Assembly (NCBI GenBank): GCA_964407715.1
Contig: CAYOWP010000006.1
Location: forward strand, 1-12,634
Reading direction: 5' to 3'
DNA length: 12,634 bases
DNA from: an uncultured archaeon
GTDB taxonomy: Archaea > EX4484-52 > JAADEF01
Below the pieces are notes generated by a model. That model searched no databases, had not been told where the DNA came from, and saw only the letters and a program-made list of their open reading frames with translations. Made by a program: the position numbers and the translations under genes. Numbering within the stretch: position 1 is the stretch's first letter; every line of letters begins with the position of its first letter. This document shows positions 4,540-12,634 of the stretch, one piece after another.

Positions 4540-4633
4540 AGAAAAAAAATATCTTATAATTTTTTTAAAGTTAATTATAATTATTAATGTTATCTTGCTT
4601 TCCAATGATGTATTGTCCAAATAATGTGTTAAG

Positions 4634-4672
4634 AAATTTTGTTAACGGGAAGTGTAGCCTATTCAAAGGGTT
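4634..4672 (+). repeat. Solo partial copy of the GGTTA...TAACC repeat monomer
   Basis: aaattttgttaacgggaagtgtagcctattcaaagggtt aligns with aaatttggttaacgagaagatatcgctattcagaaggtt (10941-10979). Confidence 0.75.
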
Positions 4673-4726
4673 AAACCGCTAGAAGTGCCATTGAACAATG
4701 CTTTCCAATGAGAGTCGGGGGTAGTA

Positions 4727-9727: not shown

Positions 9728-10336
9728 CTACCTTGCTCCTTCTGCCTCCTTTTCTCTTCTGTTCTTATCAGCAATCGCAAAACTTTCAGGATTGTTTTCA
9801 TATGCTAAAAGAATTTCCTCTGCAAGTACTTCGCCAGCTGATTTTTTATTAGCATGCCTTTTCATATATGCTCCTACCACAATATTTCTAATTGCTAAAT
9901 CTACTCTTCTTTGCGGTGAAACAATAACAGGCTCCCTTGCAATAATTCCTCCTTTCTGATAGGTTATGGCTTCCTCTACAGGCGCTGCATTTTCAATTGC
10001 TTTAACAAGCACTTGTATTGGATTTTTTTTAGTTTTTTTCTCTATTATCTCAAAAGCTTCAATTAAGTTGTCCATATTTAGCAATGTCTTTCCAACATTT
10101 ATGCCTGATGTAAGTTTGTGTTTCTTACCTTTATGACCTGCAACAAACATTCTATTCAACAATCTTTCAACAATATTAATTTTTGCTTTACCAAAAGGTA
10201 TCTTTGCAAGTTTACCGCCAGTTTTTGGATATGCAATAGGATGCAATGAAATGACATTAACTAACCCGGGATCTTCCACTTTAACATCATGAAAACTCCA
10301 CCTATTGAAAAGCTTTATATTAATCTTACCTGACAT
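9728..10336 (-). CDS. rps7: 30S ribosomal protein uS7 (archaeal S7)
   Basis: KLFNRW, VEDPGL, IVERLLNR, NPIQVLVKAIENAAP, SPQRRVDLAIRNI, LAEEI. GAGGTG SD. Confidence 0.98.
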   Translation of the reverse strand: MSGKINIKLFNRWSFHDVKVEDPGLVNVISLHPIAYPKTGGKLAKIPFGKAKINIVERLLNRMFVAGHKGKKHKLTSGINVGKTLLNMDNLIEAFEIIEKKTKKNPIQVLVKAIENAAPVEEAITYQKGGIIAREPVIVSPQRRVDLAIRNIVVGAYMKRHANKKSAGEVLAEEILLAYENNPESFAIADKNRREKEAEGAR

Positions 10337-10356
10337 GAAGACACCTCTTTAATTCA

Positions 10357-10791
10357 TTATCTACCTCTTTGCTTTCTACCAAGAACAAGCTCCTTTAAAG
10401 AGATACCATTAACTTTAACAACTTGATACTTCACACCGGGAATATCTCCTTTTGCACCACCTTGTGCTCCTCCTATTTTTTCTATTATTACTTCATCATG
10501 TTCATTAATGTGCTTTATAGCACCATTACCAGGTGCAAACGCTGTAACTCTTATCCCATTCTTTATTAATTGCACTCTTACACATTTTCTCATAGCAGAG
10601 TTTGGCTGCTTAGCTTCTACTTGTCTTTTCTCTAACACAATACCTCTTGCTTGCGGAGCTCCCTCTAAAGGATCCGCTTTAATATCCAAACCCAAAACTT
10701 TCCTTACATATGATTTCTTATGCCATCTTTTTATCTTGGCTTTTCTGATTAAGTTCCTTGCTGCGAACAACCCTCCTTTTGGAATAACCAT
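10357..10791 (-). CDS. rps12: 30S ribosomal protein uS12 (archaeal S12)
   Basis: [48 protein letters not shown]. Exact start uncertain (GTG 10794, ATG 10791). Confidence 0.98.
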
Positions 10792-10821
10792 CACCCCTTA
10801 ACATTATTAGTTTCACATCAA

Positions 10822-10840
10822 TTTATAAAATTTTTGTTTT
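10822..10840 (-). promoter_or_regulatory. Putative BRE/TATA promoter of rps12-rps7
   Basis: Minus strand reads AAAACAAAAAT-TTTATAAA, with the TATA box at 10822-10829, about 30 nt upstream of the start. Confidence 0.6.
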
Positions 10841-10858
10841 AAGAATAAATCCTTCACA

Positions 10859-11119
10859 TTGCAGCATGCTAACCAACATAAAAAGATTAGCTGCTTCAAT
10901 GTGCTTTTGTAGTTGGCATGCTTCCTGTTAACCAATATAAAAATTTGGTTAACGAGAAGATATCGCTATTCAGAAGGTTTTGGAGCAAATAACCTTTTAC
11001 AGCAGGATACCTGCTTCATTGCCTTTTGATATGGCTACATCTCCCGTTAACCATTTTATCTCAAAATAAAATTTGGTTAACGGGAAGCATACATCTTACC
11101 AAAGGCTTTATGAATAACC
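10859..11119. repeat. Array A of alternating-orientation ~49-bp monomers (GGTTA...TAACC)
   Basis: Partial R 10859-10874; F 10885-10933; R 10947-10994; F 11005-11052; R 11075-11119. F = GGTTAGCTGCT...TTCCCGTTAACC and R = GGTTAACGGGAA...AGCATGCTAACC are approximate reverse complements. Confidence 0.92.
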
Positions 11120-11123
11120 TTAC

Positions 11124-11852
11124 TCACCCTTTCCAATAAATGATATTTGATCTCCCTTTCTTTATCTTTTTTATCATTCCTAAATCCTCTAACTCTGAGA
11201 GCATGAGACTTATCTTGGCTTCAGAAAGAGGGATTTTTTTGTTAATCTCTCTTTGTGTGATTCTCTTTTCCTGTTTTAGCAATTCAATGAGTTTGCTCAT
11301 ATATTCATCACTCTCAATAATTCTTTTTCTCTTTATTCTTTTATGTAAATAAAGATATGAGATACATACAAGAGGTGTAACTAAGATTATGAAGATAAAT
11401 ATAGCCGTCCAAATAGAAAGGTGCAATTTACTTTCGTTCTCTTCGTATGAGATATCAAGTGATTCTAAAGGCGCTGAGATATCTTTACTCAGTTTATTCT
11501 CTGATGGCATGAGGATAAAATCATAATCCACCTTATCACCATTTTTGACACATAATACATCTGATGACTCATATTTGATGTCCTCTATAAAAGTATATGC
11601 TGTTAGATTGTAACATCCTGTTGAGAGATTGAGATAATAATATCCATTTGTGATTACTATCCTCATTTTTGGTGAGGTGTTTATTTCCATAACCACATTG
11701 TTTATCCTCTCAAAGGTATTGAAATTATAAAATGAGCCTTTTATCACTGCAGTAGTATCGCTTTCCTCACCATATGTTAAACAACACAAAAGAACCAATA
11801 CAATAGCGATGCTGCATATATGTGATAGAGCCACTCCTCTTTCGCTACTCAT
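11124..11852 (-). CDS. Membrane-anchored protein: signal peptide, extracellular beta-sandwich, one TM helix, C-terminal winged helix-turn-helix
   Basis: Hydrophobic N-terminus, beta-rich middle, TM segment IWTAIFIFIILVTPLVCISYLYL followed by basic residues, and wHTH ITQREINKKIPLSEAKISLMLSELEDLGMIKKIKKGRSNII. Matches a widespread uncharacterised archaeal membrane-HTH architecture. Confidence 0.85.
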   Translation of the reverse strand: MSSERGVALSHICSIAIVLVLLCCLTYGEESDTTAVIKGSFYNFNTFERINNVVMEINTSPKMRIVITNGYYYLNLSTGCYNLTAYTFIEDIKYESSDVLCVKNGDKVDYDFILMPSENKLSKDISAPLESLDISYEENESKLHLSIWTAIFIFIILVTPLVCISYLYLHKRIKRKRIIESDEYMSKLIELLKQEKRITQREINKKIPLSEAKISLMLSELEDLGMIKKIKKGRSNIIYWKG

Positions 11853-11878
11853 AAAGAATTATTATGTTATCAAAAATA

Positions 11879-11886
11879 TTTATAAA
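11879..11886 (-). promoter_or_regulatory. Putative TATA box of the membrane-wHTH gene (likely leaderless)
   Basis: TTTATAAA 26 nt upstream of ATG 11852; no SD. Confidence 0.55.
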
Positions 11887-11908
11887 ATTAATGATATACT
11901 TTTAAAAT

Positions 11909-12537
11909 GTTAGCTGCTGTAATGAGGTTTGGTAGATAGCTAAAAAAGATGGTTAATGAGAAGATATCACATTCGCAACCATATTTTAGCATGCTAACCC
12001 TAATTTTAAAGGTTAGCTGCTTCTTAACCGCTTTAAAAGGTTAGCCACTGTGAGATGTGGTTTGATAAGGTATGTTTCCCGTTAACCATAGTATCAAGAT
12101 AAAATTTGGTTAACGGGAAAATATCGCTATTCACTCAGGTTTGCAGCATGCTAACCAACATGAAAAGATTAGCTGCTCCAATGTGCTTTTGTAGTTGGCA
12201 TGTTTCCTGTTAACCAAGTAATAGAAATTTGGTTAACGGGAAGAGTACATCTTACCAAAGAGGTTCATAGCATGCTAATCAAAGTTAAAAGGTTACCTGC
12301 TTCATTGCTTTTTGATATGGCACATCTTCCGTTAACCATTTTATTTCAAAATAAAATTTAGTTAACAGCAAGATATCGCTTTTCCAAGGCACATTTCAGC
12401 ATGCTATTCTCTTAAAAGGGTTAGCTGCTCTAATGTAGTTTTTGATGAGGTATGCTTTTCCTTAACCAGTTATCATTAAAGAGATTTAAGGGTTATCAGC
12501 TCAAAGATGTCTTTTATCATGCTATTTTTTGTTAACC
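11909..12537. repeat. Array B of alternating-orientation ~49-bp monomers (GGTTA...TAACC)
   Basis: Partial F from 11909; R 11951-11999; mini unit 12011-12029; F 12039-12087; R 12108-12156; F 12167-12215; R 12231-12280; F 12291-12337; R 12360-12409; F 12419-12467; degenerate F-like 12491-12537. Confidence 0.93.
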
Positions 12538-12568
12538 ATGGAGAATCTCTTTTTAGGATAGGGCACTA

Positions 12569-12634
12569 TGGGCCGGCCCGGATTTGAACCGGGGACCTTC
12601 GCCGCGTCAAGGCGACGTCATAACCAGACTAGAC
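12569..12634 (-). tRNA. tRNA-Val(GAC), 5' end outside the window
   Basis: Reverse complement has D-arm remnant GTCTAGTCTGGTTATGAC, anticodon arm TCGCC-TTGACGC-GGCGA, T arm CCCGG-TTCAAAT-CCGGG, acceptor 3' strand CCGGCCC and discriminator A. CCA not encoded; no intron in the visible part. Confidence 0.96.

Follow-up and report, generated by a model that had tools for sequence, protein, structure and literature searches.

The 12,634-bp window of archaeal DNA analysed here (the whole stretch C6:1-12634, contig CAYOWP010000006.1) belongs to a metagenome-assembled genome (MAG; GCA_964407715.1, called G000 below) of 16 contigs, 898,521 bp and 32% G+C that is 92% complete; the runs holding the window are labelled as hydrothermal vent metagenomes. 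The window carries two blocks of short repeats, the first located between the start of the gene for ribosomal protein S12 and the 3' end of a gene encoding a winged helix-turn-helix (wHTH) protein, and the second between the start of this wHTH gene and a tRNA gene (Table 1). The initial annotation had described these two intergenic blocks as an array of short monomers in alternating orientation, which was indeed what we found: monomer models gave 13 matches in 10855-12468 (eleven of 46-51 nt, one 37-nt alignment and one 20-nt partial), with a strand order that is strictly + - + - + in the first block and + - + - + - + - in the second. Further partial monomers are present at ~11905-11945. With at most two mismatches allowed, the window contains 13 copies of the head motif TGGTTAACNGGAA, where shuffles predict 0.92; none of 200 shuffles reached this number, and 12 of the 13 copies fall within 10922-12538. 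A repeat search of the window returned ten overlapping families of direct repeats in the blocks (D1-D10) as well as many short inverted pairs (e.g. I13, I16 and I18) centred on TTCCCGTTAACCA/TGGTTAACGGGAA. The closest pair in the window, 10859-10935 and 12141-12217, is in direct orientation and flanks the wHTH gene on either side. Tandem Repeats Finder did not report the arrays in the window; the units are only ~60-80% alike.

The monomer is ~50 bp long. Its head, or P end, reads TGGTTAACGGGAAG and its tail, or Q end, GCAGC(AT)GCTAACC, and both terminate in GGTTARC. The alternation of orientation proposed initially was confirmed, but the monomers are of two distinct types, A and B, and not of one kind: both begin with TGGTTAA(C/G)GGGAA but they differ at the other end, which is GCAGCATGCTAACC in A and GAGCAGCTAACC in B. 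Joined tail-to-tail through a loop of 9-11 nt, or of ~37 nt where a mini-monomer is included, A and B form an imperfect palindrome of ~110 nt, and because A and B alternate, an array is at the same time a direct tandem of A+B units of ~128 bp. The layout is seen most clearly in the unit at 12106-12217, the seed of the genome-wide model described below, where the P end TGGTTAACGGGAA and the interior of A lead to GCAGCATGCTAACC; a loop of 10 nt separates this from GATTAGCTGCT, after which come the interior of B and TTCCTGTTAACCA. When folded as DNA and compared with dinucleotide shuffles, three of the four A+B pairs that had been proposed as palindromes behaved as such and the fourth, with decayed P ends, did not (Table 1). 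Single monomers fold no better than shuffles (z -1.11 and +1.36 for two monomers of the window), the palindrome being confined to the A+B doublet. Both classes of junction palindrome and their spacings in the window were as annotated, the tail-to-tail junctions being 10-12 nt and the head-to-head junctions 11-22 nt in length; one long tail-to-tail junction of 39 nt is due to the presence of a 19-nt mini-monomer.

Table 1. Repeat elements and context genes in the window (z scores: DNA folding against dinucleotide shuffles)
Feature	Position	Strand	Remarks
Array block 1	10855..11120		A-tail partial followed by B, A, B, A in alternating orientation; independent contigs (X1) agree
Array block 2	11903..12538		partial B, eight alternating A/B monomers (11950-12468), degenerate B (12488-12538)
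A+B unit, imperfect palindrome	12106..12217	+	best-preserved unit; DNA fold -18 kcal/mol, z -3.29
A+B unit, imperfect palindrome	10945..11054	+	DNA fold z -4.08
A+B unit, imperfect palindrome	12229..12339	+	DNA fold z -3.48
A+B unit, decayed P ends	12358..12468	+	P ends TAGTTAACAGC / TTCCTTAACCA; z +0.43, no better than shuffles
Mini-monomer, 19 nt	12012..12030		GGTTAGCTGCTTCTTAACC; lies in the 39-nt tail-to-tail junction
Repeated segment, 77 bp	10859..10935	+	96% identity to 12141-12217; direct family D6
MITE copy, 94 bp	4609..4702		B-like monomer within degenerate terminal inverted repeats (GTATTGTCCAAATAAT ... ATTGAACAATGC)
wHTH gene between the blocks	11124..11852	-	242-aa membrane protein with C-terminal winged helix DUF7343; Pfam PF24034, E 2.8e-12
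Ribosomal protein S12 gene	10357..10794	-	Pfam; block 1 begins 61-65 nt upstream of the start
tRNA gene, cut by the window end	12569..12634	-	Rfam RF00005, 43.8 bits; not seen by ARAGORN

The arrays in the window are one locus of a lineage-restricted and very abundant family of non-coding mosaic DNA repeats. In G000 the segment C9:262-43957 is a 100% reverse-complement copy of C8:7161-50856 (43,696 bp); because the same region is thus present twice and would inflate raw copy counts, the duplicate was masked beforehand, leaving 854,505 non-redundant bases (~0.85 Mb). A unit model made from the four palindromes of the window and iterated once was then used in an nhmmer search of the MAG. Hundreds of copies were found outside the window, in 128 arrays that cover 40,013 bp or 4.7% of the non-redundant bases, a total that takes in the interiors of a second family, of miniature transposable elements with inverted repeats (MITEs), described below. 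The arrays make up 33% of the DNA outside open reading frames (ORFs) of at least 70 aa, and the expected intergenic bias was evident, as such ORFs contain only 3.7% of the repeat bases compared to 86% coding sequence genome-wide.

The rules seen in the window also hold across the genome. Among 580 monomers at E<0.01 (253 A and 327 B) there are 431 neighbour junctions, of which 229 are tail-to-tail, 178 head-to-head and 24 in the same orientation, so that 407 of the 431 (94%) are inverted; A is paired with B at 202 of the tail-to-tail and 160 of the head-to-head junctions. The tail-to-tail gaps have a bimodal distribution with one class of 8-13 nt (mode 9 nt) and another of 35-41 nt (mode 37 nt), about one third of them genome-wide being of the long form, which contains the 19-nt mini-monomer (GGTTAGCTGCTTCCTAACC) and a second loop. 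Head-to-head spacers measure 13-24 nt and are 92% A/T. Arrays reach a size of 15 monomers; of the 130 ends of long arrays, 93 are formed by a head, beside A/T-rich DNA. The architecture is therefore like that of repetitive extragenic palindromes (REPs) and bacterial interspersed mosaic elements (BIMEs), as was initially proposed: high in copy number, intergenic, alternating in orientation and with two classes of junction.

The family was found in a single lineage only. BLAST returned 59 matches in G000 and none in 40 relatives, and a pattern of the core gave 58 matches in G000 (none with the reversed control) and none in the other 41 genomes of the phylum, which are all those in the library and include one of the same genus. 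Among 185,579 species genomes the pattern gave eight single chance matches, in unrelated bacteria, none of which fits the unit model, and viral contigs yielded one single chance match. Ten of the eleven metagenome loci that match the pattern were rejected, as they fail the unit model. One unrelated metagenome contig (L028, 360-660) carries ~15 tandem copies of a 19-bp palindromic unit (ACAGGTTAACCTGTATAAT-like) resembling the iterons of plasmids and phages; its many GGTTAAC sites are due to this tandem, and its match to the pattern was a chance one. In three relatives the spacers upstream of the S12 gene are 58, 93 and ~176 bp long and free of repeats; the corresponding spacer here is 329 bp.

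The ends of the repeats are much better conserved than their interiors. This was observed in units that had been collected by their interior columns only. In a first search of this kind just 43 of 85 matches had both exact hexamers, and most of the failures belonged to the second family; after removal of the matches near a terminal inverted repeat (TIR) of that family, 54 units were left. Conservation in these amounts to 97% and 89% for the P-end cores but only to 67-68% for the interiors. Because the ends have remained 89-97% conserved while the interiors have drifted to ~67%, we infer that the ends are probably recognised in a sequence-specific manner, at the DNA level, by a protein.

The units are old. 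Their median pairwise identity is 61% and the median identity to the best match 79%, and among 166 units only one pair is at least 93% identical. Only 18 of 116 units have their nearest relative within their own array, and since it is usually found in another array, units seem to have been exchanged among arrays. The arrays also differ between strains, by insertion or deletion of whole units and by swapped monomers. For instance, contig C11 of the MAG and a metagenome contig (L034) with 99% identity to it show three differences within the array: a whole unit of 122 bp, a mini-monomer junction that only one of the two has, and a cluster of nine substitutions within a single unit. Contigs from another sample and study (X2) have the same arrays as the window, with single-nucleotide polymorphisms and one monomer replaced.

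The second, related family surfaced in the interior-only searches and has a 17-bp TIR, GGCATTGTCCAATAATT. With at most three mismatches, this TIR gave 138 matches in G000 (0-2 for shuffled motifs), which form 54 left-right pairs that are mostly 140-160 bp apart, with steps near 250 and 350 bp. We estimate some 54-69 copies of this MITE in G000, with target-site duplications (TSDs) of 9 bp. Inside the MITE lies a single hairpin unit, the heads of which read TTGTTAAC where those of the arrays read TGGTTAAC. The TIR is present on both sides of 42 of 84 short clusters and on neither side of 51 of 65 long arrays (at least four monomers); each A+B unit has inverted heads of 14 nt, and the arrays as a whole have no TIR pair. 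In the window, one MITE copy (Table 1) is located between divergent genes and is flanked by a perfect 9-bp TSD, TTCCAATGA, at 4600-4608 and 4703-4711. In G000 we found no TIR pair at a distance typical of an insertion sequence (IS) and in the MAG no autonomous partner; the TIR was not found in the 41 relatives beyond chance single near-matches, and in viral contigs it occurred at chance level (ten single matches). Elsewhere, the window encodes archaeal Pus10 and ribosomal protein S7 (both by Pfam), and at 158-2573 it has two long ORFs (377 and 433 aa) without a Pfam match.

The initial annotation had placed the cognate enzyme elsewhere and had suggested a search for Y1/HUH transposases or tyrosine recombinases. 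A cognate HUH enzyme is not supported by the 92%-complete assembly: a six-frame search of G000 with Y1_Tnp (PF01797) gave no match, while controls were positive in 6 of 14 genomes, and the same six frames contained no Cas12f1-like_TNB (TnpB-type), DDE_Tnp_1, rve, Transposase_mut (IS256-type), DDE_Tnp_IS1595 or Resolvase (serine recombinase) domain. The only tyrosine recombinase in G000 is encoded by a single Phage_integrase gene (286 aa, XerA-like). We saw no evidence that the DUF7343 protein encoded between the two blocks of the window is the cognate protein of the repeats. Ten single genes flanked by arrays were scanned, seven of which have housekeeping, toxin-antitoxin or weak structural matches (including a Hef-like helicase-nuclease, diphthamide synthase, NIF3, a HAD-kinase, ParE and a ribbon-helix-helix (RHH) protein) and three of which have no Pfam match. 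The latter (P0001-P0003) were considered as candidate enzymes and rejected, Atlas look-ups of P0002 and P0003 having given no usable lead (TM <0.5, feature scores <0.9). The genes for the ParE-type toxin and the RHH protein (C7:54417-54674 and C10:28993-29259) each stand alone between two arrays. The MAG also has copies of a gene pair that are 80-95% identical (C2:111155-113226, C3:37241-39469, C14:18515-21389, C10:35040-36023 and C8:5662-7939) and that encode a 110-aa membrane protein and a secreted protein of 560-630 aa rich in 'NTLTNIT.NNN' beta-helix-like repeats; another multicopy surface protein is encoded at C1:29852-31246.

The system was compared with a number of known repeat systems. 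BIMEs contain two alternating REP subtypes, Y and Z, to which the monomers A and B can be likened. The REP, BIME and REP-associated tyrosine transposase (RAYT) systems are described for bacteria in passages of PMC2817692 and PMC3733652, and the same passages, on the REP/BIME and REPIN-RAYT systems of Escherichia, Pseudomonas, Xanthomonas and Stenotrophomonas, mention the features that are shared with the arrays: hundreds of short extragenic repeats, regularly spaced clusters in alternating orientation with head-to-head and tail-to-tail junctions and distinct classes of linker, a doublet that forms a hairpin unit (REPIN) and a sequence that is specific to the species. REPs carry a conserved GTAG or CGTC tetranucleotide at one end (according to a passage in PMC3733652), and for Archaea the part of PMC6006769 concerned lists, among the Y1 proteins, only the IS200-type of subclass 1.1. 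Unlike a REP, which is itself an imperfect palindrome of 20-40 bp, the monomer described here is ~50 bp long and forms no stem-loop on its own, and its consensus runs from TGGTTAAC... to ...GCTAACC without a terminal GTAG or CGTC. RAYT systems have a single-copy Y1 HUH gene, usually flanked by REPs, whereas no such gene was found here; moreover, the arrays described here are those of an archaeon, are found preferentially in divergent spacers, on the promoter side, and not at the 3' ends of genes, and account for 4.7% of the genome. Strict membership of the REP family thus fails, as the monomers are no palindromes and there is neither a GTAG/CGTC tag nor a RAYT. We found no description of a BIME-like system of Archaea in the literature searched, in agreement with the initial annotation, which knew of no described archaeal equivalent, and the interpretation given there is partly supported.

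With the MITEs of prokaryotes, including those of Archaea, the arrays have in common that they are small, non-coding, intergenic, non-autonomous and taxon-specific and have inverted ends, and the companion family fits the definition fully (17-bp TIR, 9-bp TSD, ~150 bp). The arrays differ in that they are tandem mosaics and not single insertions, lack TSDs and mostly (51 of 65) are not bordered by a TIR pair. In density they greatly exceed the maxima that a passage of the MITE census in PMC11602168 gives (for an archaeon 146 MITEs/Mb, and as a share of a genome 1.23%), although the methods differ. CRISPR arrays, like the repeats described here, consist of regularly spaced, partly palindromic short repeats in non-coding archaeal DNA, but here 94% of the junctions are inverted where CRISPR repeats are direct, the variable middles are diverged homologues and not unique spacers, and there are ~130 loci instead of a few. 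The BOX elements of pneumococci and the ERIC/IRU elements of enterobacteria are modular imperfect palindromes of ~110-130 bp with a variable number of internal modules; they are transcribed with the neighbouring genes and are mostly single. The likeness to these is one of architecture: the A+B units have the same size and imperfect palindromy and the mini-monomer would be the internal module, while the arrays contain up to 15 monomers. Finally, the M1/M2 arrays of Pithovirus (bioRxiv 10.1101/2023.03.08.530996), compared by description, are likewise made of short palindromic repeats that are non-coding and have invaded a compact genome, in that case of a giant virus of amoebae.

Taken together, the arrays constitute a lineage-specific, BIME/REPIN-like DNA repeat system of an archaeon, and we consider it most likely (with a probability of roughly 60%) that this is selfish or tolerated DNA, the ends of which are protein-recognition sites. 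The conserved ends would then be recognised by a trans-acting sequence-specific protein (a transposase, a recombinase or a domesticated binder) from outside the families searched. Units may spread to new sites or into existing arrays, as is suggested by the nearest relative being usually in another array, and arrays may then grow, shrink and swap units through slippage, conversion or unequal recombination. In evolution the family would be tied to the co-resident MITE with TIR and TSD; the hairpin module that both share suggests that the original vehicle was an IS of the cut-and-paste kind that is now absent from the assembly. The repeats would be selfish or neutral DNA, tolerated away from core promoters, in line with the distance that array ends keep from gene starts but not from stops. 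Several observations weigh against this explanation. Young copies are scarce and ongoing transposition is thus not demonstrated; conserved ends in old copies fit selection at the level of the host as well as they fit a selfish model; inspection of 130 ends of long arrays revealed no TSD or conserved target; no enzyme was identified in the 92%-complete MAG; the enrichment of arrays between divergent genes could mean function and not tolerance; and the gene calls come from a simple longest-ORF heuristic.

The main rival, which we consider rather unlikely, is that the repeats are functional elements of the host: the arrays would be platforms of binding sites, with palindromic GTTAAC heads flanking AT-rich spacers, that are bound by a chromatin, insulator or regulatory protein and kept on the promoter side by selection. 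The contrast between the ends (97% and 89%) and the interiors (~67%), in combination with the scarcity of young copies, speaks for purifying selection in situ. The placement of the arrays also points in this direction, as they are found in 50 of 145 spacers between divergent genes (34%), compared to 37 of 466 between tandem genes and 15 of 147 between convergent ones (8-10%), and 77 of 126 array ends face a gene start, at a median distance of 119 nt. Moreover, 416 of the 551 GTTAAC sites lie inside arrays; avoidance of a restriction site was considered and dismissed, since the 135 sites outside arrays, with 156 expected, give no signal. On the other hand, none of the 41 relatives has the family, not even the one of the same genus, the S12 upstream regions of three relatives are short and devoid of repeats, and the number and content of units vary between co-occurring strains. 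Array ends that face a gene start stay at least 55 nt away from it (5th percentile, n=77) and those that face a stop abut or overlap it (n=49), but the distance to gene starts is not fixed, for which reason a role of the array as a promoter donor was also rejected. Divergent spacers are the longest even without arrays (medians of array-free spacers 84 bp versus 14 and 6.5 bp), and the enrichment may therefore reflect available space. A candidate for the binder is lacking as well.

It was also proposed initially that the repeats could be an array of structured RNAs, a proposal that was not upheld. In this explanation, and in the related one of bidirectional terminators, the ~110-nt hairpin and an oligo-T tract would act as RNA, either in cis or in trans. 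The units do fold well below shuffles (as RNA, means of -32.7 versus -19.3 kcal/mol; as DNA, z -3.3 to -4.1), and the head-to-head spacers start with T-runs on either strand. However, an Rfam scan of the window (E up to 1) returned the tRNA only and no family that matches the repeats, and in 166 full units each of the 29 stem pairs showed Watson-Crick counts equal to those expected from independence, which means no covariation. Units with native and with swapped B halves fold alike (-32.7 versus -32.0 kcal/mol, p=0.48), and the covariation term of RNAalifold for 21 units was -0.04 kcal/mol. A scan of mutual information of all columns against all was set aside in favour of the explicit pair tests, because signals from subfamilies and mis-oriented copies dominated it and no anti-diagonal pattern was seen. 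The direction from A to B in tandem spacers is unrelated to that of the genes (14 the same, 12 opposite), and the low share of convergent spacers with arrays (15 of 147) is the opposite of what is expected from terminators. Since swapped halves fold alike and covariation is missing, the palindrome is a property of the consensus of the family that is not maintained copy by copy, and an action as RNA is improbable.

Equally hard to sustain is the explanation that the arrays are the decaying remnant of one ancient MITE burst, in which the interiors were amplified locally and the TIRs lost, with no activity or recognition at present. The module that is common to the interior of the MITE and the monomers of the arrays, the size steps of the MITE (~150, 250 and 350 bp), which suggest an internal gain of units, the age of the units (median identity 61%) and the lack of a transposase in the MAG are all in line with it. 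It does not account for the long arrays without a TIR at either end (51 of 65), for the different heads of arrays (TGGTTAAC) and MITEs (TTGTTAAC) or for the unit indels that still separate strains, and neutral decay leaves the difference between ends of 89-97% and interiors of 67% unexplained.

An artefact of assembly or binning, for which the redundancy between C8 and C9 and the absence of the rRNA operon from the MAG might be cited, can be dismissed: independent Logan contigs (X1) cover 9746-10974, 10946-11073 and 11056-12598 with 0 differences, a single one of them (11056-12598) spanning all of block 2, the arrays are also present in X2, a JGI metagenome contig has a 940-bp array joined to unique genes, and counting was done after removal of the duplicate. 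The arrays in the window are thus not an assembly artefact, as is clear from independent contigs of two samples. The repeats do break assemblies, as is illustrated by the rRNA operon, which lies beside an array and is absent from the MAG: the starts of C1 and C11 are connected on L034, which also has the missing rRNA genes, and the operon on it directly adjoins a 940-bp array. Both rRNA genes (738-5726 of L034) are on the minus strand and in an unusual order, with the 23S gene (5726 to 2760) upstream of the 16S gene (2199 to 738).

REP, BIME and REPIN systems are regarded as bacterial and tied to RAYTs, and the BIME/REPIN-like arrays described here connect this type of organisation to an archaeon, without a recognisable transposase. 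It is possible, although at present doubtful, that they are an archaeal counterpart of REPIN-RAYT without an HUH enzyme, that is to say long-lived, vertically inherited repeats the GGTTAAC/GGTTAGC ends of which would be held constant by a sequence-specific protein of a DPANN-like archaeon (a new kind of domesticated enzyme, be it transposase or recombinase, or else a factor of the chromatin or insulator type) and which would have come to take part in the organisation of a third of the intergenic DNA. The ends of the repeats appear to be under selection, and still none of the relatives searched has the family. In a very small archaeal genome of ~0.85 Mb, of a kind thought to be strongly streamlined, these repeats take up 4.7% of the DNA and a third of the spacers. 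If the ends are bound by a protein of the host or of the element, that protein is probably new; if the repeats are purely selfish, they would represent an extreme tolerance of repeats in a reduced genome.

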